Position numbers and translations under genes: made by a program. 64,000 nucleotides of DNA, taken from the IMG/VR virus record IMGVR_UViG_3300008266_009503, positions 1 through 64,000 of that record; one strand, written 5' to 3'. The DNA comes from a virus. This document shows positions 1-45,764 of this stretch, in pieces (positions within the stretch are counted from its first letter, which is position 1; each line of letters opens with the position of its first letter). The notes under the pieces are model-generated. The model searched no databases, was not told the origin of the DNA, and saw only the letters and a program-made list of their open reading frames with translations.

Positions 1-98
1 ACTGAGTCTTTACCTATGGTCTTGGCTATTGGATAGGATTGGGAGTAACTTGTAAGGCCTACCAACATTAGTATTAATACTATCTTTAAGTGTTTCAT
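1..98 (-). CDS. Partial secreted/membrane protein overlapping the lipoprotein gene (spanin-like overlap); runs off the window
   Basis: Read by eye: ATG at 98 gives MKHLKIVLILMLVGLTSYSQSYPIAKTIGKDS, a signal-peptide-like N-terminus; overlaps 10..372 by 89 nt. Confidence 0.55.
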   Translation of the reverse strand, partial: MKHLKIVLILMLVGLTSYSQSYPIAKTIGKDS

Positions 99-372
99 TT
101 GTTTCTTTTAATTCAGTTACGGTCTGTTTTAAATTGTTCATAACCGTAGTCGTAACTTCTATCTTTTTCATAACTGTGCTATCTACTGCTTTATTGATAG
201 TATATATTTTTGACTGGTTTGATTCACTTTTTTTAATTAGATTATCTAAAACACTAGTCTTTTTTTCTTGAGTTGCCTGTTCTAAAACTTCTTGCTTTTC
301 TGGCTCTTCTTCGACATTAGAACTACAGGAAGCAATAAATAGAGTGAATAATATAAGTATTACTTTCTTCAT
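10..372 (-). CDS. Lipoprotein with coiled coil, possible spanin component
   Basis: Signal peptide with lipobox FIASC; coiled-coil C-half; start overlaps the upstream stop (TAATG). Confidence 0.5.
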   Translation of the reverse strand: MKKVILILFTLFIASCSSNVEEEPEKQEVLEQATQEKKTSVLDNLIKKSESNQSKIYTINKAVDSTVMKKIEVTTTVMNNLKQTVTELKETNETLKDSINTNVGRPYKLLPILSNSQDHR

Positions 373-677
373 TATTGTATTTTTCCTAACTGTTGTAATA
401 TAGATATAGTAGCTATCGCTCCTGATAATGTGCTATCTGATTTTCTAAGTTGAGTTGATAGAATATCTATTTTACCCTCTAGGTTTTCTATTTTTTTACC
501 TTGTTTTTCTATTTGAGAGTTGTAGTTCATTTTACCATCGACATATAAATAACCTATAGCTATTAATACAATAAATAGTAATCCTTTAACAGGATCTTTA
601 CTAAACTCTTTAAAAGAAATAGGTGGTTTAATTGCACCCGCTACTGAGTCTACTGTTGTAGGTTTTTTTGGTGCCAT
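372..677 (-). CDS. Single-TM coiled-coil protein, i-spanin-like
   Basis: TM segment GLLFIVLIAIGYLYV followed by a heptad-rich helix; translationally coupled to the lipoprotein gene. Confidence 0.45.
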   Translation of the reverse strand: MAPKKPTTVDSVAGAIKPPISFKEFSKDPVKGLLFIVLIAIGYLYVDGKMNYNSQIEKQGKKIENLEGKIDILSTQLRKSDSTLSGAIATISILQQLGKIQ

Positions 678-685
678 TCTGTTTT

Positions 686-1432
686 TTATTTTTTACCACC
701 CTCTTGAGTAGCATATTTTATACCCATTATAGTACCGACTATAGAAAAAGCATTTGTAAGTAGTACACTGAACATATTACTCCAAGTTGAGCCAATAATT
801 TGTGTGTCTTTGCCAGTGACCATAGCCATCCAATATAGCATGGTTGTTATAACACCTACTCCCACAATAACTGCCAAAGCAACTTTAACAATCGTTTTTA
901 TTAATTCGGATTGACTTTTCTTCATCATCACATCCAAATCGTTCAACGCAGCGTCTTTTTCTAGCTCTATTGCATTTTTGAGTTTTTTGGAGTTATCCAA
1001 CTCAATTTGTAGATCTTTAGAAAGAGCGCCTATCTTATTCTTATAATTCACCATTTCCGTAATATCTGTAGCAATCTTCATCACTTTAGTTATGTTATTG
1101 CTATCGTCAAAAATTGGATTATAGGTTGCCTGTAAAAATATTGGACTTCCATCCATCTTCTTTCTTTCAAATTCTCCCTCAAAAAATTTACCACTCCTCA
1201 AGGTATCCCAAAACTTTTTATATTCTTCCGACTTCGAGTATTCGTACGATACAAATATACTATGATGCTTTCCAATGAGTTGCTTGTGGTCTTCTTCCTT
1301 ATAACCCATGACTACTAAGAAGATTGAGTTCATTCCTAGTATATAACCATCGAGGTCAAAGTATATAATGGCATTGCTACGATTAATCGCTTCAAGTCTA
1401 CTTAATAGTTCCTCTTTGGATAAATTTTTCAT
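686..1432 (-). CDS. PAS-domain sensor + coiled coil + two C-terminal TM helices
   Basis: INRSNAIIYFDLDG...GKHHSIFV...FWDTLRSGKFFEGEF...LQATYNPIFD...KIATDIT matches chemoreceptor-type (BdlA/Aer-like) PAS/PAC; two hydrophobic helices at the C-terminus. Confidence 0.85.
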   Translation of the reverse strand: MKNLSKEELLSRLEAINRSNAIIYFDLDGYILGMNSIFLVVMGYKEEDHKQLIGKHHSIFVSYEYSKSEEYKKFWDTLRSGKFFEGEFERKKMDGSPIFLQATYNPIFDDSNNITKVMKIATDITEMVNYKNKIGALSKDLQIELDNSKKLKNAIELEKDAALNDLDVMMKKSQSELIKTIVKVALAVIVGVGVITTMLYWMAMVTGKDTQIIGSTWSNMFSVLLTNAFSIVGTIMGIKYATQEGGKK

Positions 1433-1456
1433 GTTTGCGTAAATATAATTATTTTA

Positions 1457-1708
1457 CTATTCTCCGTTAGAATCTTCTTTGCCTTTGTTAATAAATTTAT
1501 CTACTGATCCGATTCCAAAAGAACCTAATGTTAACCACAGAAATGAATTAAATATAAACTCTTGAACAACAAGCTCTTTGCCAAGTGTTCCGGTAACAAT
1601 ATCTGCTCCTGCAAATACTACCATCATTACAAATGCTAAAAAACCAACAACTGATTTTTCATTGATGGTGTTGCTGTCATTGAATAACTGTGAGAAGAAG
1701 TGTTTCAT
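1457..1708 (-). CDS. Holin-like two-TM protein
   Basis: 83 aa, two hydrophobic helices, charged C-tail, heads a membrane/lipoprotein cassette. Confidence 0.5.
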   Translation of the reverse strand: MKHFFSQLFNDSNTINEKSVVGFLAFVMMVVFAGADIVTGTLGKELVVQEFIFNSFLWLTLGSFGIGSVDKFINKGKEDSNGE

Positions 1709-1738
1709 ATTTTTAATTTTTAATGTATGTAAAACAGA

Positions 1739-1770
1739 AAAAGGCTGTATATATACTATACAACCTCTTT
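1739..1770 (-). terminator. Hairpin + U-tract between the TATTTAT motif and the holin-like gene
   Basis: Sense AAAGAGGTTGTATA-gtata-TATACAGCCTTTT followed by TCTGTTTT. Confidence 0.5.
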
Positions 1771-1798
1771 ACATTAATAAATAGTCTAGCTTATTAAA

Positions 1799-2008
1799 TT
1801 ACGAAACTCCTCTAGATTCAGTTAGTTTTTTCATGTGCTCAGCTGTTTCTTTATCTCGTACAATAGATACTTCGTATTCTACCTTGTTAGCACCTCCTAC
1901 AAATCCGACGTACTTAAAAGCATTAGAATGGTTTACACAGGTATCTACATACCCTAACTGAACTCTTTTTTCCGGAATAAGACTTTGACACACCCTACAA
2001 AACTTCAT
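1799..2008 (-). CDS. Small zinc-finger protein (CxxC...CxxH)
   Basis: CRVC...TCVNH; loosely DksA/TraR-like spacing. Confidence 0.45.
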   Translation of the reverse strand: MKFCRVCQSLIPEKRVQLGYVDTCVNHSNAFKYVGFVGGANKVEYEVSIVRDKETAEHMKKLTESRGVS

Positions 2009-2214
2009 AAAATTTTAATTTTTAACTTAGTTAAACTATTTTTTCTTATTATTTCTTTCTTTTTTCTTTTCTGTAAAATTAAAATGCTCTACTAGAACAG
2101 GACCATTTCTAGTCTTACTGTAATTATAATGCCAGCGAGAATCTAATTTTTTATCGTCTGTAAAATACTCTACTACAAATTTTGTATAAACTTCCAGAAC
2201 TGCTTTTGCCATTT

Positions 2215-2502
2215 TTATCCATATTTACCTACTAACAAATCTATTCTCTCTTTATTAAGATTAGACTCGTTTAACTGGGATTGAATAAATATAAGATCTT
2301 TTTTTAAGTCTAGCAACTTTGCTGAAGGTCCTTTTCTACTCCATAAATCATATTCTTCTTGTATCTTAGTGTGGAGTGTTTTTATCCTATAGGGATAATT
2401 TTTACGGTTAGCTATCTCTTTTAGCTTTTCAAATTGATCTAACTGCTTAACTAGCTTATTAGCAGTTTTGTTTATCCCTGCTTGTTTATTAAAAAATTTC
2501 AC
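2215..2502 (-). CDS. Hypothetical protein
   Basis: ORF in the minus-strand gene array. Confidence 0.5.
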   Translation of the reverse strand: MKFFNKQAGINKTANKLVKQLDQFEKLKEIANRKNYPYRIKTLHTKIQEEYDLWSRKGPSAKLLDLKKDLIFIQSQLNESNLNKERIDLLVGKYG

Positions 2503-2675
2503 CCTCTACGTTTTCTTCTTTCGTCTTTTACTAATTTACGGAGGGTAAAGATAGATACGGTAATAGCCAAGAGTAGAGATAAGGTCTGCAAGTAAGGCAT
2601 ACTCGCCATGATAAAACTTGATATGTGCAAGCCCCAGGTACTAATAGTTAAAAATTCAGGCGTAGCTTGTTTCAT
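2499..2675 (-). CDS. Small membrane protein (not in ORF track)
   Basis: MKQATPEFLTISTWGLHISSFIMASMPYLQTLSLLLAITVSIFTLRKLVKDERRKRRG; hydrophobic core and basic tail. Confidence 0.5.
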   Translation of the reverse strand: MKQATPEFLTISTWGLHISSFIMASMPYLQTLSLLLAITVSIFTLRKLVKDERRKRRG

Positions 2676-2676
2676 T

Positions 2677-2895
2677 TTAGTTTTGAATACTGATTTTCTG
2701 TGTAAGTATTACTTCCCATCCTACAGCACACTTAGTAAGTATAGATAACTTTTTACTTATCGTACCTTTTTCTAATAACTCTACCATCAACTCAATCCAC
2801 ATCTCTCTACTATCTACATGCAACATTTTGTGTCTACCCTTCGGTATATGTCTTTCTGCTAAACTTTCTAACGCTTCGTATAAGACCTGAGTCAT
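2677..2895 (-). CDS. Hypothetical protein
   Basis: ORF preceded by the CTATTTAT motif. Confidence 0.5.
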   Translation of the reverse strand: MTQVLYEALESLAERHIPKGRHKMLHVDSREMWIELMVELLEKGTISKKLSILTKCAVGWEVILTQKISIQN

Positions 2896-3088
2896 AATAA
2901 TGATAAATAGAGTATATAATTACTTCACCCACTCGGTTACTCCCAATGCAAAGGCTTCCGCAGGAGAGAGTTCTGGATTTTTCTTCATAGTAGTAAGAGC
3001 AAAGTAGATTACTTCTAGCTCCAATCCATACTCCAATGCGGTATCGAGCATCTTGCCAATAGCTTCTAACTGTTTTTCTTCCATATAT

Positions 3089-3120
3089 TAAATATATGAT
3101 TAATTTCTTAAAATTTCAAC
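3089..3120 (-). promoter_or_regulatory. Bacteroidota-type sigma70 promoter (GTTG-N20-TATATTTA)
   Basis: Resembles the Bacteroidota -33 TTG / -7 TAnnTTTG consensus; same 20-nt spacing recurs at other sites. Confidence 0.6.
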
Positions 3121-3782
3121 TATATTTTAGAGATAAATTCAGATCCTGGCTCGTAATTATCTGTAGGTTCTAAACCAAGTTCTTTAAAGTGTTGCATAAA
3201 ACTATCATCTACCTCCCAATCTATCTGATCCTTTACCAGAGTGGTAGCATTTGCATCTTCAAGCCTTAGTATTTGTTTTTCAGAAAAGAGATTACCTACG
3301 TACAGGAAGTAACAATTATAGCATAACATACGAAGATTCTCTAACTTCCAATTATGCTTATTATTATCTTTAAAATTTAAAATAAGAGGCTGTCTGTAAT
3401 CTACAACCCTCTTCTCGTGATGTCCACAGTTATAGCACTCCATTCTAAGAATGCCTTCATATATTAACCTGTTCTTGAGTTTTTGTTGATTGACTGCCCT
3501 ATAGCTTTCGCTGGACATTATCTCGTTAATCTTTTCTACAGAGATGTCGTGATTCCACTTAACTCTTTTTATACCTCTACCTGAATCGTTCTTATGTAAT
3601 TCGTATAAACTCTTTCCTGAGTCCTGGTCAATGTATAACTTTGCATACTTCCTGTATGTTTCAATAGTGACATTCAGATACCGTGCAGCCTGAAAATTAG
3701 ATTGTGTATGCTTCATTGCATTTCTTATAACGGCTTCTGAAAAATCTCTCCTAGGCCTTCCGGCTTGTTTTCTATTCGCCAT
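3120..3782 (-). CDS. HTH + HNH-like zinc-finger DNA-binding protein (likely start MANRKQ at 3782)
   Basis: N-terminal HTH-like QAARYLNVTIETYRKY; CYNC...KDNNKHNWKLENLRMLCYNC HNH-like module. Confidence 0.6.
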   Translation of the reverse strand: MANRKQAGRPRRDFSEAVIRNAMKHTQSNFQAARYLNVTIETYRKYAKLYIDQDSGKSLYELHKNDSGRGIKRVKWNHDISVEKINEIMSSESYRAVNQQKLKNRLIYEGILRMECYNCGHHEKRVVDYRQPLILNFKDNNKHNWKLENLRMLCYNCYFLYVGNLFSEKQILRLEDANATTLVKDQIDWEVDDSFMQHFKELGLEPTDNYEPGSEFISKI

Positions 3783-4179
3783 AAGCAGGATCAATAGTAA
3801 GTAGTAAGTTCCACAGATCTTGTGCATTCTCTAGAACTACTTCGTTGTTATTAGCGTCTAATAAAGGAACTATACTTCCATCTAAAGCTAATCTCTCCCA
3901 GAGGTAATAACCGATCAACTCTGCTCCTTCTTTTCCAAAATGTAATACAATTAATGCATCAATAGTATCTAGGAAAGCTTCGTCGTATTTAGTTAAATCC
4001 AAATTTAACTCGGCATACATTAAGTTTTGCCTATTTACTACTTGTTCGATAGAATTAATTATAGAAGTAAACAACTCTTTCTTCTTCTCTATACGAGTTT
4101 TTTTCTTCTTTCTGATTAGGCTCTTTACGTTAAGTATTTGATTTATAGCTACTTGAATTTCATTAAGAGGCTGCTCCAT
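3772..4179 (-). CDS. Hypothetical protein
   Basis: Operon-coupled ORF. Confidence 0.55.
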   Translation of the reverse strand: MEQPLNEIQVAINQILNVKSLIRKKKKTRIEKKKELFTSIINSIEQVVNRQNLMYAELNLDLTKYDEAFLDTIDALIVLHFGKEGAELIGYYLWERLALDGSIVPLLDANNNEVVLENAQDLWNLLLTIDPAYGE

Positions 4180-4528
4180 TTTCCTTCTTTTTAGTGGTTT
4201 TGTTAGGGAGAGTTTTGACAGGTTGTCTTATTTCGTCAATAAGTTTTTTAAGAGGAATACACTCTTCGAATTTTTCTTCCTCTAGCATAAAATTAATACA
4301 CTGTTCGAGAGCTGGAATCCAGTACTGCTTTGGTATGTCTAGGTAAAAACCTAATCCATTTATCTCAAAAAGAGTAGCAAATGTTTTTCTACTTTCGAAA
4401 GCTTCTTTAATAGCGAGAGGGGTCTCTTTCTTAATTAAATCTAGTAATGCAGAAGTCTCTACAAGATCGACAGTCCTGATATTTTCTAAAGGCTCAAAAA
4501 GGGCTGTTGGAATTTTTCTTTTACTCAT
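4163..4528 (-). CDS. Hypothetical protein with UVR-like C-terminal motif
   Basis: EEEKFEECIPLKKLI resembles the UvrB/C motif. Confidence 0.45.
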   Translation of the reverse strand: MSKRKIPTALFEPLENIRTVDLVETSALLDLIKKETPLAIKEAFESRKTFATLFEINGLGFYLDIPKQYWIPALEQCINFMLEEEKFEECIPLKKLIDEIRQPVKTLPNKTTKKKENGAAS

Positions 4529-4546
4529 AACCTAATTCTGTGTTTA

Positions 4547-4996
4547 TTATTTTAATCCTGCCATTTTCTTAATCCACTCTCTCAACGGCTCTTCTTGTGC
4601 AGGCAATTCCTGCGCCGGTAATTCGGGTTCGGGTTTCTCTTCTGGAGTAGAGTCTTGTACAGAATCTCCTTTTATTACATTCTGTATCAAGTAGTTAGCT
4701 AAAGAAGGAAGTGGTAGTAAAAATCCTATTACATTCTTATACGGATTTTCAACATCATACATTAACTGTAATCCAGCATCACCAAACTTTTGTTGTAACT
4801 CTGTACCAATTTCGTTAGCCATTTGCTGAATTTGCTGCATGTCTTGAGGGGCATCCTTCATTACGAATTGCAACTTAACTCCTTTCTTAGTTTTGTTTAT
4901 ATTAGTATCAAATCTAAGAGTTAAGTGATGACCTGCAATCTCTACAGGGTATTCAGGTATTAACGCCGGCAAGGCTTCTTTTAACGTAGCTTTCAT
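4547..4996 (-). CDS. Hypothetical protein, possibly virion-internal
   Basis: CTATTTAT motif directly upstream; acidic ELPAQ repeat. Confidence 0.5.
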   Translation of the reverse strand: MKATLKEALPALIPEYPVEIAGHHLTLRFDTNINKTKKGVKLQFVMKDAPQDMQQIQQMANEIGTELQQKFGDAGLQLMYDVENPYKNVIGFLLPLPSLANYLIQNVIKGDSVQDSTPEEKPEPELPAQELPAQEEPLREWIKKMAGLK

Positions 4997-29235: not shown

Positions 29236-30900
29236 TTAGAAATTACCCATATTCATCTCTTCTTCCTTCTTTTTATCGTCTTTTTTCTCAAAAATAACTG
29301 ATTCAGTAGTAAGAATTGTTCCGGCAACAGAAGCTGCATTTTCGATAGCAGTACGTGTTACTTTAGCTGGATCGAGAAGACCTGATTCTTGGGCTGTAAC
29401 TACGTTTTGAGTCTTAGCATTATAGGTAAACAGCATATCTTCACCGCCATTACCTACTAAGTCCATCCTAGCATCAGCAACTTCTCTGAGAATAGAGTAG
29501 TAATCTTCTATTCCGCAGTTACTGAGAATTGTTTTAAATGGCTGAAAGCATGCTTTACGTACTATATCAAAGCCAAGCATTTCATCTGCAGAGACTTCTT
29601 TTGGTTTAATTGAAAGACCGTTAAATGCTTCGATAAGAGCAATGCCTCCTCCGGGTACTACCCCTTCTACGAGTGCTGCTTTAGTAGCAAATAAAGCATC
29701 TTCTACTCTATCTCTTTTCTCTTTAATTTCGATATCAGAGTTACCGCCTACTGAAATAATAGCTACACCGCCTACCAGTTTTCCAAGCCTTTCTTGAAGC
29801 TTTTCTTTTTCGTAGAAAGAAGTAGCTTTTTCAACCTGATCTTTAATCTCTTCTGCTCTTGCACCAATCGCTTCTACAGTTCCTTGTCCGTCTACTACTG
29901 TAGTGTTTTCTTTAGATACGTTAACTATCCTAGCTTTTCCAAACATTTCTACAAGCTGTATAGGAGTAAGTTTGTCGAGTTTATGTCCTTTGTTCTTAGA
30001 AATAACTTGGCCTCCTGTTAGGATAGCTAGATCTTCTAGAATCAATGTACGCCTTTCTCCAAAATCGGGAGCTTTTACTGCTACTACACTTACAACTCCT
30101 CTCATTTTATTTACGATCAAAGTAGCCAACGCCTCATCTTCAATATCTTCTGCTACAACAAGGATAGATTTACTATCAGAATTAGCTTTACTCAAAGCAT
30201 TGAGAAGTTCTGCAGCTTTTGTAATACGTCCGTCGTAGATCATAATATACGGCTCATTTAGTACAGCCTGCATACTTGTATTATTCGTAACAAAGTACGG
30301 AGATTTATAACCTCTATCAAATTGCATACCTTCTACGATCTCAAGACTTGTCTCTCCTGTTTTAGATTCTTCGATAGTAACAATACCTTCACGGCCTACT
30401 TTCTCAATCGCCGTAGAAATTAACTCACCTACCTCGGTGTCATTATTAGCTGAAATAGTAGCTACTTGCTTAATTTGATCTTGAGAGGCAATATCCTTAG
30501 CAATCTCTTTAAGCCTGCTAACAACCTGTCCTACATACTTATCAATACCTTTTTTTACTTCTACGGGATTAGAACCTTGGTTAATCAACTTCAGACCCTC
30601 TTCTACCATAGTAGTAGCAAGTAGAGTGGAAGTTGTAGTACCATCGCCTGCTTCGTTAGCAGACTTAATGGATACCTGTTTTACAAGCTGTGCACCGAGA
30701 TCTTCTACTTGATCTTCTAATTCATGAAAAGAACGAGCAACTGTAACACCATCCTTAGTTACTTTAACCTCTCCTGATTGTTCTTTAATTAAGACTGTTC
30801 TACCTCCAGGGCCTAGTGTGGAAGAAACTGATTGATTTAGTTTCTTAATACCTGCTAGTAGTTTGTTCTTTAATTCTGTTCCGAAAACTGTTGTTGTCAT
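29236..30900 (-). CDS. groEL: Chaperonin GroEL
   Basis: [45 protein letters not shown]. Confidence 0.97.
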
Positions 30901-32428: not shown

Positions 32429-34741
32429 CTAATGGCCATCTCTAAAATTTACCGAAACTTCTGGAATTGCAATCAACTCTACTCCGTCCAGTTTAGTTGT
32501 ATTTTCCATACAGTCTTGAACTATCTCACAAGCCCTTGATACATCTTCTTCCCTAACTTGACAGATTAACTGGTCATGTATCTGACAAATAACCTGTCCT
32601 ACAATATTCTCCCTTTGAAATCTCCTGTTTATTTGTAAAGCTGCACGGTTTACTATACTTGCAGAATAACTTTGAATTTGAAAGTTTAAACAGTTATTAA
32701 GTGCATTCTTATAGTCCCGGTATAGACTAGTAACATACTCAATTCCATAGTCTTTTTCGAGTTCTTTTCTAAATCGCCAATCTTCAATAAGCTTATCTCC
32801 TAGTGCAGCATAAATCTCTTTAGCTTGCGGTAGGTGTCTCACACGTCCTACTTTATTTTTAATATAACCTTGCTCCTTTACAAACTTACGAGAATTCTCT
32901 CTCCACTCTCTCAGTTGAGGAAATCCGTCAAGGTAACCTTCTATAAGCCTTTCTCCTTCTTTTCTATCTACGCCCAGTGACATTGCTAGAGCATACCCGG
33001 ACATACCGTACGGCACACCCAGAGAATAAGCTTTTGCTGTCTGTCTTTTAACCGGATCTACTTTTTTAAGGAAGTTAGGAGCTTTTGTGTGGGCACTAAC
33101 TCCTTCTAATTTTTCAGTTTTTATAGCAATGTGAGAATAAAAGTCAAGATCGTTGTTAAAGATATCTTTTAATCCCTGATCACCTGCCACAGTAGCGAAT
33201 ACTCTAGGTTCTAGTGAAGCATAGTCAGTATCTAAAACCTTAGTACCTTCGTCTGCAATAAAGAACGCTCGAACTAGGTTAGTATAGTTCATAATCATTT
33301 CTTCATCCTGTCCTGGTTCAAGAGGTTTAGGTAATTGCTGCATATCCGATCCATAACGTCCCGATACGGTGCCGTTTTGCTTAAAGTACGGGTAAAACTT
33401 ACCATCTTCTGCTGAATCTAAAAATCGATCTACATACGCAGTTTTAATCTTAGTAAGCTTGTTGTATAAACGAAGGTGTTTTGCCCAAGTATATTTGTCT
33501 TTAATAGACTGAATCATATCTTCGTCGAACTGTGCTTTACCTTTAGTAGTTGACGAAATAGGTTTTTCGCCTAGAACATTAAAAGCTATTTTACCCATTT
33601 GATCCTTAGACTGAATATTAAAAAACTGCCCACTATTATCTTCTTTCCAAAGAGAGAGGCTAGTTCTTACTATTTGATCTTTAGTTAGGTAGGTTGTATC
33701 GCCAGTTATTAGAAAATCTTTAAGAGCTGAGTTAGGAAGTCCAGATACAGCTGCTTTGTTAATCGTAAACTTACCTGTTTTTTCTGATTTAGGTAATTCT
33801 ATGTTATTATGCTCAAGCAGTCTTTGTGCAAAAATACCTTTACTCTTAGGAGGGTAAGCTTCTACAGCCTGATCTATAATCCAACCCCTGACTTTAGGCT
33901 CTTTTAATAGTTCTTGAACTACCAAGACAGACTGCTCTTCTAAGTCCTTAGCTATTCTGTCTCTAGTTTCTTGAATTAGAGGGATATCTAACCTTATACC
34001 GTGTTCTTCCATTGGTATAGTAACCTCTCTATAAACAGGCATAACTTCCTCTTCAAAGAAAAACTTATCTAGACCTTCTTTGATTAACACTTCTAAGAAA
34101 TGCTTATAGATACGTAGAGTCAAGTCAGTATCGGCTGCTGCATACTTAGATAAAATCTCTAGGTCTGCTTTGTAAATTTCGTAACTCTCCTTAGAAGTAG
34201 ATCCGCCATTAGCTTTAATACTATCCTTCAATGCTACCTGCTCTTCATTAGCTTCCTTCTCAACATCCAATCCAATTTCTTTCTGTACCATTATAGCAAT
34301 CGGTTTCAAACCAAACGGACTACCGTATCCGAAAGCTCCTTCTTCTTTTACTGTATGTACTAGTAAAGAAGTATCTGCATGAAGAGAAGGAAGCAAATTA
34401 ATCCCATAAAAACACTTTACATACCGTAAGTCGAAAGAGGCGTTATGGCATATAAGTTTTTTATTTATGAGTTGATTAATAACAAACTTAGTTAATTCAT
34501 GCGCTCCTTTACCTTCTATCTGTACTTCCTCTAATCGGTCTACATTCCATATCATAGTAGGCATATAAAAACCTTTACCTACCTCTCCGGAGACAGAAAA
34601 TCCTATAATACGCCCTTTACGCGGGTTCAGACTATCAGTCTCGGTATCGAAAGCTATGTACTCATTTTCCCTAATGTGTTGAATTAGTTCTTTTAAAGTT
34701 TCTTTGCTGTTTACAGTTACATAACTTTTTTGTTGTACCAT
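32429..34741 (-). CDS. polA: Family A DNA polymerase with 3'-5' exonuclease (Leu at the Klenow 762 position)
   Basis: FDTET, HNASFD, YAAAD exonuclease motifs; SGRYGS; DYASLEPR (A), RQTAKAYSLGVPYG (B), QIHDQL (C). Confidence 0.95.
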   Translation of the reverse strand: MVQQKSYVTVNSKETLKELIQHIRENEYIAFDTETDSLNPRKGRIIGFSVSGEVGKGFYMPTMIWNVDRLEEVQIEGKGAHELTKFVINQLINKKLICHNASFDLRYVKCFYGINLLPSLHADTSLLVHTVKEEGAFGYGSPFGLKPIAIMVQKEIGLDVEKEANEEQVALKDSIKANGGSTSKESYEIYKADLEILSKYAAADTDLTLRIYKHFLEVLIKEGLDKFFFEEEVMPVYREVTIPMEEHGIRLDIPLIQETRDRIAKDLEEQSVLVVQELLKEPKVRGWIIDQAVEAYPPKSKGIFAQRLLEHNNIELPKSEKTGKFTINKAAVSGLPNSALKDFLITGDTTYLTKDQIVRTSLSLWKEDNSGQFFNIQSKDQMGKIAFNVLGEKPISSTTKGKAQFDEDMIQSIKDKYTWAKHLRLYNKLTKIKTAYVDRFLDSAEDGKFYPYFKQNGTVSGRYGSDMQQLPKPLEPGQDEEMIMNYTNLVRAFFIADEGTKVLDTDYASLEPRVFATVAGDQGLKDIFNNDLDFYSHIAIKTEKLEGVSAHTKAPNFLKKVDPVKRQTAKAYSLGVPYGMSGYALAMSLGVDRKEGERLIEGYLDGFPQLREWRENSRKFVKEQGYIKNKVGRVRHLPQAKEIYAALGDKLIEDWRFRKELEKDYGIEYVTSLYRDYKNALNNCLNFQIQSYSASIVNRAALQINRRFQRENIVGQVICQIHDQLICQVREEDVSRACEIVQDCMENTTKLDGVELIAIPEVSVNFRDGH

Positions 34742-43904: not shown

Positions 43905-45764
43905 TTATACAACCTCACAAGCTCCTCCTGCACAAGCTGCTTCTCCGGCTAAGTTTGTATTGTCTACAAATTCTATAACTTGGGAGAGATCTACCTTGTG
44001 CAGGCTTTTCATTTTTTCGTTATAAATCTCTTCTGTACAGTCTTCAAATGGAGCTTGAATATAGGTTCCGCCGTCGTAAGGTAGTACTGAAAGTCCGTTA
44101 TAAAACTTTCTGTTCTCCCACATCCACTTACCTACCTCTTCCCATTCTTCTGCTTTTATAGAGACTGTAGCAGAAATATTGTGAGTATTACTTCCTGTTC
44201 TATGTCCAGGTTTAATCCAGTTTTGGTAAAAATGCTTAACCCTTTCTAAAAGATCCAAAGCAGATTCATGCCTCAGTATAGCACCTTCTGGTGCTTTTTG
44301 CGGTACTGAAATTACAGCAGTATCGTGTGGACGGAAGTACTCGTCTTCAATAAGTTCTGGATGATTTATCAACAGGTGAGTATAAATTGATTCGTTCTTA
44401 CCGACTCTAATCCTACGAAGGTAGTAATCGTTATGCCAAGCATGAATACCGCTTGAAGTACCTAAAGTCAGAGAAGAAGTACCGGAAGGTTTAATAGTAG
44501 TACACCTTGCGGCAGAGTTAATACCGAGTAACTTAGCTACTCTGTCGTTTTCCTGCTTTACTATTTCAGCAGCTTCTTTTAAATTTAACTTCTGTGCAGC
44601 ACCAGATCCAATTCCAGTCATACCTACACCAATCAAAGCATCTTTCTCGGTAGTACGTTGCCATACTGGTCTTAGGTAGTGAAAGTTAGTGTACGAGGCT
44701 TGTAAAGTTCCAATAAAAGTAGCAGCTTTTACTCTTGCATTCAAGTCTTCTTGATCTACTACATCAGAAACATTTACCTCACAGAGGTTACAAAACTGAA
44801 AAGGACGTAAAGCAATCTCACAGCACGGGTTAGTACCCCAATCCTTGTCGTTATTAAAATAAATCCCGGGTTCACCAGCTCCACTAGCTTTAATTTTCTC
44901 CCATAAGTCAGAAAAGAACTCCTCTGTTACTTTGCTTCTGAGGAGAACTGCTGAATTATTGGCACGGCCTCGTTGAGGATGGAGCTCCCACCAAGCACCG
45001 GATTTAGCAGCAATCATATCTTCATCATCAGCACTAAATAGACTGATAAGAGCTGCTCTACGTATACCTCCTGCAAGTACTGCATCAGCAATGTGACATA
45101 CCATGTCATGTACTTCGCTCGGAGTTAATTTATCGTTAGTTTCTTTACTATCTAGAATTCCTTGAACCTTAATCAAACACTCTTTAAGAGGTTGAGGACC
45201 AGGAGCTTTACCTCCTGAAGTTATTAACGCTGCTCCTTTTGGACGGATATCAGAAAAATCGAATATAGGAGTTGTCCCACCTTCGAAATACGATTTAACC
45301 AGTACTTTTACTGCATCGGCCCACCCTTCAATACTATCGCCAATCAAAAAACGTCTATGCTTCTTAGAATCTGGTTTTCTTATTTCCGGTAGCTGCTCTA
45401 CATGGTGTTTTTGAACAGAGTATCCTACCCCTGTACCGCCTAGAAGCAAAAACATTACCTCTCCAAAAGCTCTCCAATCGTCAATCGGTAAATAAGCGCA
45501 ATTATAAATACGGTTAGGACTGATCTCGACAGGTTTACCGGCGAATTGCATAGACCTCATAGAAGGAAGTGCTTTCTTTTCGTAGACAAATCTATAGTTT
45601 TCTTCAATCTCTTCAGCTAGCTGCGGAAATTTTTTTAAATGCATACCTTTATTCCTGTCGACTAACTCTTTCCAGCTTTCCCTTCTTTCTTTTTCGGGAT
45701 TGAATTTTGCATATTTCATGTAGACTGTTAGATCCGACAAAATACTCTTACTTACTTCCATCAT
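43905..45764 (-). CDS. nrdJ: Class II (B12-dependent) ribonucleotide reductase
   Basis: IYNCAY, GTNPCCEI, TIKPSGT, C-terminal CAGGAC; no small subunit nearby. Confidence 0.9.
   Translation of the reverse strand: MMEVSKSILSDLTVYMKYAKFNPEKERRESWKELVDRNKGMHLKKFPQLAEEIEENYRFVYEKKALPSMRSMQFAGKPVEISPNRIYNCAYLPIDDWRAFGEVMFLLLGGTGVGYSVQKHHVEQLPEIRKPDSKKHRRFLIGDSIEGWADAVKVLVKSYFEGGTTPIFDFSDIRPKGAALITSGGKAPGPQPLKECLIKVQGILDSKETNDKLTPSEVHDMVCHIADAVLAGGIRRAALISLFSADDEDMIAAKSGAWWELHPQRGRANNSAVLLRSKVTEEFFSDLWEKIKASGAGEPGIYFNNDKDWGTNPCCEIALRPFQFCNLCEVNVSDVVDQEDLNARVKAATFIGTLQASYTNFHYLRPVWQRTTEKDALIGVGMTGIGSGAAQKLNLKEAAEIVKQENDRVAKLLGINSAARCTTIKPSGTSSLTLGTSSGIHAWHNDYYLRRIRVGKNESIYTHLLINHPELIEDEYFRPHDTAVISVPQKAPEGAILRHESALDLLERVKHFYQNWIKPGHRTGSNTHNISATVSIKAEEWEEVGKWMWENRKFYNGLSVLPYDGGTYIQAPFEDCTEEIYNEKMKSLHKVDLSQVIEFVDNTNLAGEAACAGGACEVV

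Follow-up and report, generated by a model that had tools for sequence, protein, structure and literature searches.

Near the start of a 64,000-nucleotide stretch of phage DNA (hereafter the window, the first 64 kb of the 73.7-kb IMG/VR viral contig IMGVR_UViG_3300008266_009503, CheckV completeness ~45%) lies a gene for a 248-aa protein, here called the PAS-hairpin protein, in which a PAS sensor domain is connected to a two-helix membrane hairpin by a single long helix. The source is an uncultured lake phage, probably of a freshwater Bacteroidota host, whose genes lie almost all on the minus strand. On balance, we think that this protein is probably an accessory, signal-gated regulator of lysis timing. 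A preliminary description of the window had gone further and proposed a sensor-gated holin or antiholin that times lysis to the redox or O2 state of the host; as laid out below, the linkage to lysis genes bears this out in part, whereas the protein is not an essential holin and the case for binding of flavin adenine dinucleotide (FAD) or heme is weakened.

Genomically, the relatives of this gene keep close company with lysis genes. Open reading frames (ORFs) were called around the gene in 80 loci of relatives that carry two PAS domains (tandem-PAS) and in 73 further loci, the neighbours were clustered, the main clusters were named by Pfam, and counts were made after removal of duplicate genes, leaving 60 tandem-PAS genes and 52 genes (mostly single-PAS) from a search seeded with the window protein. 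An endolysin-family gene lay within 1 kb of 49/52 unique window-seeded genes and 44/60 unique tandem-PAS genes, and of 28/29 window-seeded genes when only loci with both flanks complete were considered. These endolysins belong to four classes, namely GH19 (many with PG_binding_1), PG_binding_1, Phage_lysozyme and Peptidase_M15_3. The family of tm83, a small holin-like protein with two transmembrane (TM) helices that is encoded directly upstream in the window, or the related 2-TM family c19, was found within 1.5 kb of the PAS-hairpin gene at 42/60 tandem-PAS and 44/52 window-seeded loci, and other recurrent neighbours were Phage_holin_4_1, a u-spanin-like protein that combines a lipobox with a C-terminal TM helix, and pairs of a single-TM helical protein with a lipoprotein. 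With the farther flanks of each locus as an internal control for the nearer ones, endolysin ORFs numbered 15 within 3.5 kb versus one at 3.5–10 kb, and a second such comparison gave 27 within 2 kb versus none at 2–6 kb. Genes outside the cassette vary among loci (tail fibres, replication genes, glycosyltransferases), and because these outer genes differ so widely, the PAS-hairpin gene travels with the lysis genes and not with the phage backbone. Thus, homologues are linked to lysis genes on many backbones, and the absence of such linkage, which the preliminary description had named as a refutation, is clearly not observed.

The gene is nevertheless dispensable. Five contigs were obtained when metagenome assemblies were scanned for an exact 29-nt match, and three of them (L244, L245 and L247, with three different accession prefixes) are 87–91% identical to window 1–696 and 84–85% identical to window 1469–1726 (DNA, blastn), and lack window 697–1468. 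In all three, tm83 is followed after ~16 nt by TMcc101, the TM protein of a TM/lipoprotein pair that is retained, and the flanking genes are intact. Since three close relatives (85–90% DNA identity) lack exactly this gene, it is not an essential holin, and the genomic evidence indicates that it is not required for lysis, contrary to a reading of the protein as the holin proper. On a related backbone (L003/L228), the same slot after an HNH gene holds tm83, then a 1-TM gene, then a tandem-PAS gene. The gene is thus a modular accessory, and its optional status is more in keeping with a modulator, T4 rI being one example, than with a primary holin.

Structurally, the ORF with its PAS domain and two C-terminal TM helices is real by ORF list, Pfam, hydropathy and AlphaFold2. 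With curated Pfam cut-offs for the four profiles tested (PF13426, PF08447, PF00989 and PF08448), residues 22–126 match PAS_9 (E=3.6e-12, 46.9 bits, cut-off 27) and residues 19–126 also score above the cut-offs of PAS_3 (42.1, cut-off 25.6), PAS (33.9, cut-off 22.6) and PAS_4 (30.7, cut-off 23.1), which makes the protein a member of the PAS domain family. No HAMP, MCPsignal, kinase, cyclase or other output family was matched by Pfam in the 248 residues, in agreement with the earlier observation that an output domain is missing, and the chain ends 10 residues after the second TM helix (TM2), so that it is not a methyl-accepting chemotaxis protein (MCP) or Aer receptor. AlphaFold2 (alignment A3) predicts one helix over residues 116–206, a four-residue turn at 207–210 and a second helix over 211–246, with a predicted local-distance difference test score (pLDDT) of 78–89 over about residues 130–240, i.e., the helix and hairpin; the PAS part of the model, built from a shallow mixed alignment, had pLDDT <50 and was not used. 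Hydropathy places the TM segments at ~181–199 and ~220–238. The linker had been called a coiled coil, and a long helix is indeed predicted there, but in a crude heptad a/d test the periodicity of residues 127–177 was no better than that of shuffled sequences, so that "long helix" is the safer term. Ratios of nonsynonymous to synonymous substitution (dN/dS) against relatives were <0.1 for each of the three regions (PAS, linker and hairpin; dS saturated), and the gene is under strong purifying selection.

Evolutionarily, the single-PAS form is populous. A protein search with the window protein gave thousands of matches, the best 120 of which are all ~371 aa long, 72–78% identical, and carry two PAS domains followed by the same helix-hairpin; relatives overall are 73–90% identical. 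A viral-contig scan seeded with the window protein found single-PAS genes at 60/73 loci, with identities of up to 90%, and P0129, another representative (251 aa), shares the PAS junction of the window copy. By identity, the single PAS is closer to both the first (PAS1) and the second (PAS2) domain of the tandem forms than these are to one another, and in a quick tree search (a careful one being unfinished) PAS1 and PAS2 each formed one clan, with support of 99.5 and 100, and the single-PAS forms fell outside both. The single-PAS form is an old, natural lineage. A recent in-frame deletion between the two repeats of a tandem-PAS gene had been considered as the origin of the window gene and was rejected in view of the large single-PAS lineage, P0129, the intermediate identities and the quick tree. 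In cultured phages, the window has no near-DNA match, the PAS protein gives PAS-only partial matches, and P0140, a representative of the hairpin proteins in which no PAS is fused, has no match.

These data also bear on the scarcely credible idea that a host chemoreceptor (Aer/MCP-like) was cut short behind its membrane anchor and left this gene as a decaying or non-functional remnant, or that two PAS repeats were collapsed into one during assembly. Homologues do carry the Joint Genome Institute (JGI) label "methyl-accepting chemotaxis protein", and a collapse at the GKHHSIFV repeat was initially suspected from the tandem-PAS forms. The idea, though, is at odds with the purifying selection just described, with a populous lineage that is nested in neither the PAS1 nor the PAS2 clade, with the lack of an MCP signalling domain, and with an independent metagenome contig (L246, Ga0315909_10023918) that is 100% identical over 4.6 kb (window 1–4609). 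The hairpin, moreover, is virtually absent from cellular genomes.

When residues 165–248 were used in an exhaustive HMMER (phmmer) search, 92 representative clusters were found to contain the hairpin module, and the E value was <=1e-10 for 69. Its C-terminal motif in most of these proteins reads TWSN.FGILLTN.FSI.GTIMGVKYA; the window protein carries the form that marks the family, TWSN.F..LLTN.FSI.GTIMG.KYA. Most module proteins are 180–230 aa long and place a different ~60-residue N-terminal domain and a variable long helix before the same hairpin; a search for fusions >434 aa that carry the hairpin found none, which is weak evidence. Across 29 sequences, down to 22% identity (alignment A3), the columns W217, N227, F229, S230, I231, T234 and G237 are invariant, and N227, S230, T234 and G237 lie on one helical face of TM2. 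No family in Pfam or PHROGs covers the helix-hairpin module above threshold: the matches are weak (phrog_1544, of unknown function, and DUF7442 below cut-off), and the protein matches no described holin family. The ESM Atlas likewise returned only viral hypothetical clusters (score <0.9) for the hairpin. Among 185,579 species genomes, the module was present in only eight contigs, all from metagenome-assembled genomes (MAGs), with a different phylum assigned to each; this scatter points to mis-binning of viral DNA. The hairpin module is thus found almost only on phage DNA. It also occurs behind other N-termini, namely a C2H2-like zinc finger, a GT2 glycosyltransferase fragment and a TsaD-like fragment (P0123, P0157 and P0121), which may be real domain swaps or assembly chimeras.

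Could such a hairpin itself make the hole? As a signal-gated holin or pinholin, the protein would oligomerise via the polar face of TM2 and depolarise or permeabilise the membrane when the PAS domain switches, serving as a second conditional trigger beside tm83. Several features would suit a holin: two TM helices in a class II topology (N-in, C-in), a short basic C-terminal tail, an invariant mid-membrane Asn in TM2 together with small and polar residues, as is typical of oligomerising or lumen-lining helices, and, in relatives, immediate adjacency to the endolysin at many loci. We nonetheless regard this as quite unlikely, given that the gene is cleanly dispensable in close relatives, that tm83/c19 or Phage_holin_4_1 is already present at most loci, and that a 248-aa protein with a 175-aa cytoplasmic N-terminus, a near-invariant sequence and no holin family match is unlike known holins.

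The sister form of the hairpin protein, in which no PAS is fused, is informative about inputs. In this unfused branch, a stand-alone receiver is encoded immediately upstream in 76/79 viral loci, and a histidine kinase of 2TM-PAS-HATPase_c architecture is present in 70/79. In the kinase PAS, which resembles both MmoS (E=7e-28) and Aer (E=3e-19), the flavin-contacting H, N and R are all retained, as in a full Aer/MmoS-type flavin PAS. The kinase-receiver-hairpin three-gene unit was seen on hundreds of viral contigs (L082–L161, e.g., L096:4255–5532 and L106:5560–5997). It shares with the window protein the same C-terminal helix-hairpin (E down to 1e-30), carriage by phages and a place in the endolysin region, and differs in that its input is a phosphorelay and its hairpin protein has a different N-terminal domain of ~60 aa, whereas in the window protein the PAS is fused directly and no kinase or receiver lies nearby. 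Because different sensors precede the same hairpin, the hairpin behaves as a common output, and the simplest reading of these sequences is that the helix-hairpin would be an output device driven by either a fused PAS or a phage two-component system. This phage-encoded kinase and receiver fit a design in which a sensor is coupled to a membrane output.

Mechanistically, we posit that the N-terminal PAS domain stays in the cytoplasm, where it would read an intracellular signal, and that its state would be passed down one long, probably dimeric, helix directly into the first TM helix (TM1). The packing of the two-helix hairpin in the inner membrane would then change with the state of the PAS domain, and the hairpin would act on the proteins that form the hole, with the neighbouring tm83/c19 or Phage_holin_4_1 holins as the likeliest target. 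Lethal hole formation might in this way be delayed or advanced, so that the protein would be antiholin-like or pro-holin-like, with a cue that is internal rather than periplasmic. A complex prediction of hairpin residues 150–248 (alignment A3) with tm83 (alignment A4) gave a score of 0.00, which is no verdict and is evidence neither way. More tentatively, and with somewhat less conviction than for the regulatory role itself, the whole family might form an inside-out lysis clock, in which a common phage-only hairpin gates holin triggering and accepts as input a fused PAS, tandem PAS domains or a phage-encoded Aer/MmoS-type redox kinase and receiver, so that the infected cell's metabolic or redox state, and not holin accumulation alone, would determine when it bursts.

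The closest solved sequences to the PAS domain of the window protein are flavin binders, with MmoS (3EWK, E=2e-9) ahead of a phototropin LOV domain, Aer (8DIK) and NifL. In Aer, H53 stacks on the isoalloxazine, N85 hydrogen-bonds to O4/N3, R115 lies near N5, W70 stacks on the adenine and R57 binds the phosphate, and the equivalent MmoS residues of the first three are H132, N164 and R195 (PMC9668731). In HMMER alignments to 8DIK and 3EWK, the window protein keeps the first and fourth of these (H53 as H57, W70 as W75) and replaces the others (N85 by R90, R115 by A121 and R57 by V61), so that it lacks the full Aer/MmoS/NifL-type H/N/R set and has lost 3/5 of the Aer FAD contacts. The window residues at these positions are invariant in the phage family, and the fused PAS is only 26–28% identical to the kinase PAS of the unfused branch. 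The earlier statement that this type of PAS binds FAD or heme therefore does not transfer to the window protein, in which flavin, judged from these alignments, would be possible but is not indicated.

Several observations weigh against a role in lysis timing. No endolysin lies near the cassette in this phage, either in the 73.7-kb contig or in the 1.46 kb by which it could be extended: tblastn with four endolysin clusters of relatives found none in the contig, and searches with PF01471, PF00182, PF01510, PF00959, PF08291 and PF01464 found none in this phage (the PF00182 search matched no control genome either and says little). The preliminary remark that no endolysin is visible in the window thus extends to the rest of the contig and to the extension. 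The extension comes from L246, which reaches 1,460 nt past the window start. There a 143-aa ORF is followed by genes for three further proteins: one of 51 aa with a TM helix, one of 188 aa with two TM helices and CxxC pairs, and a lipoprotein of 56 aa. None of the four matches a known family or is an endolysin, and the last three have no PHROG match better than E=0.002. The holin label of tm83 comes solely from topology and position, and neither the whole PAS-hairpin protein nor its hairpin relatives match a holin or antiholin family in Pfam or PHROGs. At a minority of related loci (e.g., L040, L059 and L017) replication or other genes are the neighbours; linkage is looser in the unfused branch, with 16 endolysin ORFs within 2 kb versus 18 at 2–6 kb over 34 loci; and a near-invariant TM helix is unusual for proteins of holin systems and may instead reflect a conserved target in the host membrane.

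Some of these points would also favour a membrane effector with a non-lysis target, either a host inner-membrane protein (of respiration, transport, division or envelope synthesis) or superinfection exclusion, that was placed among lysis genes by the clustering of membrane genes. For such an effector, the conservation of TM2 across divergent phages would suggest a conserved partner, and in this phage the gene lies in a run of eight membrane or exported proteins with no endolysin among them. We consider this unlikely, since the linkage in relatives is too tight for clustering, with endolysins of all four classes and usually as the very next gene. The run of membrane genes stands apart from the endolysin in this lineage, as the lysis genes of T4 do from one another. 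In four relatives (L179, L222, L004 and L005), families tm83, TMcc (c31, that of TMcc101) and the lipoprotein occur together with a GH19 endolysin. Regulation of lysis timing is the reading that we retain as the more probable one.

Table 1 Features of the PAS-hairpin gene and its neighbours in the window (residue numbers refer to the 248-aa protein).
Feature	Position	Strand	Description
PAS-hairpin gene	686..1432	-	248 aa, ATG start; PAS domain, long helix and two-helix membrane hairpin
PAS domain	1055..1375	-	Residues ~20–126; ends in an ATDIT motif leading into the long helix
Continuous predicted helix	815..1087	-	Residues 116–206, from PAS end through linker into TM1 (AlphaFold2)
Membrane hairpin	716..901	-	TM1 ~178–206, outer loop TGKDTQIIGSTW, TM2 ~216–239 (hydropathy)
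Stretch absent from three relatives	697..1468	-	PAS-hairpin gene and short spacers (blastn, junction alignment, ORF maps)
tm83	1457..1708	-	83 aa, 2-TM, holin-like, with a charged tail at the C-terminus; immediately precedes the PAS-hairpin gene
TMcc101	372..677	-	101 aa, N-terminal TM helix and helical outer part, i-spanin-like
lipo120	10..372	-	120-aa lipoprotein, lipobox IAS|C; o-spanin-like by position
5' part of 143-aa ORF	1..98	-	Signal peptide and C-terminal TM helix; runs off the window; full ORF L246:1127–1558(-)
Terminator-like hairpin	1738..1770	-	14 pairs and a T run; between the zinc-ribbon-like ORF and tm83

The local layout (Table 1) reads, on the minus strand, zinc-ribbon-like ORF, terminator-like hairpin, tm83, PAS-hairpin gene, TMcc101 and lipo120, and ORFs, hydropathy and lipobox agree with the earlier placement of the gene, which has a 2-TM holin-like gene on one side and a TM/lipoprotein pair on the other. 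The position of the terminator-like hairpin suggests that the membrane genes probably form a transcription unit of their own. In the window copy of tm83, TM1 is clear and TM2 weaker, whereas homologues have two TM helices; no Pfam or PHROG holin family was matched by it. TMcc101 and lipo120 would fit a two-component spanin in topology, lipobox and overlap (the stop of TMcc101 overlaps the start of lipo120), but PHROG matches of lipo120 to an Rz-like spanin are weak (E=0.0025) and confined to the signal region. In another frame, the 143-aa ORF shares ~90 nt with the 3' end of lipo120, a layout that resembles overlapped spanin pairs and is kept in L244 and L245. Further upstream, an HNH endonuclease-like gene (window 3120–3827, minus strand, PHROG E ~1e-9) lies ~1.4 kb before tm83, with several small ORFs in between; in L244 and L245 an HNH-like gene directly precedes tm83. 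What follows this gene varies among relatives: a single-PAS gene, a tandem-PAS gene or neither. Beyond the cassette, the contig codes for a DnaB helicase and glycosyltransferases, and the window for a GroEL-type chaperonin (29236–30900), a family A DNA polymerase (32429–34741) and a ribonucleotide reductase (43905–45764), all on the minus strand, a set consistent with a large phage (~160 kb by CheckV estimate).

Lysis timing sets phage fitness, and to our knowledge the only well-studied cases of environmental sensing in lysis are the lysis inhibition of T-even phages and of ICP1, in which superinfection is read from the periplasm. A full-text literature search turned up no account of a lysis protein that is fused to a PAS domain or coupled to a two-component system. 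If the proposed role is true, phages would have a second, different route to decide when to burst, one coupled to host physiology. The compact 248-aa gene, together with natural variants with and without it, would make the timing of lysis by host energy state directly testable, and could offer a ligand-controlled lysis switch for synthetic biology.

Among known systems, class II holins and pinholins such as S68 of phage 21 have two TM helices (N-in, C-in), a polar or small TM face and a charged C-terminal tail, and lie beside the endolysin. The window protein shares with them the two-TM topology, the polar/small face, the short charged tail and, in relatives, the endolysin adjacency, but it is three times larger, has a 175-residue cytoplasmic sensor, is dispensable, and is near-invariant where holins are highly diverse. 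On the sensor side, Aer, MmoS and NifL (8DIK, 3EWK, 2GJ3; PMC9668731) are the nearest solved relatives of the window PAS. Aer, the nearest analogue in architecture, also has an N-terminal cytoplasmic PAS, a DIT-type motif leading into the signalling helix and a two-helix membrane anchor; the phage protein lacks a HAMP or kinase-control domain and is set apart by its phage-only hairpin family and by the replaced N85, R115 and R57. On the output side, the nearest functional analogues are found in lysis inhibition, in which the T4 holin T is paired with the antiholins RI and RIII, with RI able to act membrane-anchored (PMC11413866), and the ICP1 holin TeaA with the antiholin ArrA (PMC7182436). 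RI, RIII and ArrA are likewise non-essential accessories that are encoded with or near lysis genes and tune holin timing to a sensed condition. They have no sequence or domain similarity to the window protein, and RI senses superinfection through a periplasmic domain, whereas the window protein, with only a ~10-residue loop beyond the membrane, would sense through its cytoplasmic PAS domain and bind its holin as proposed here.

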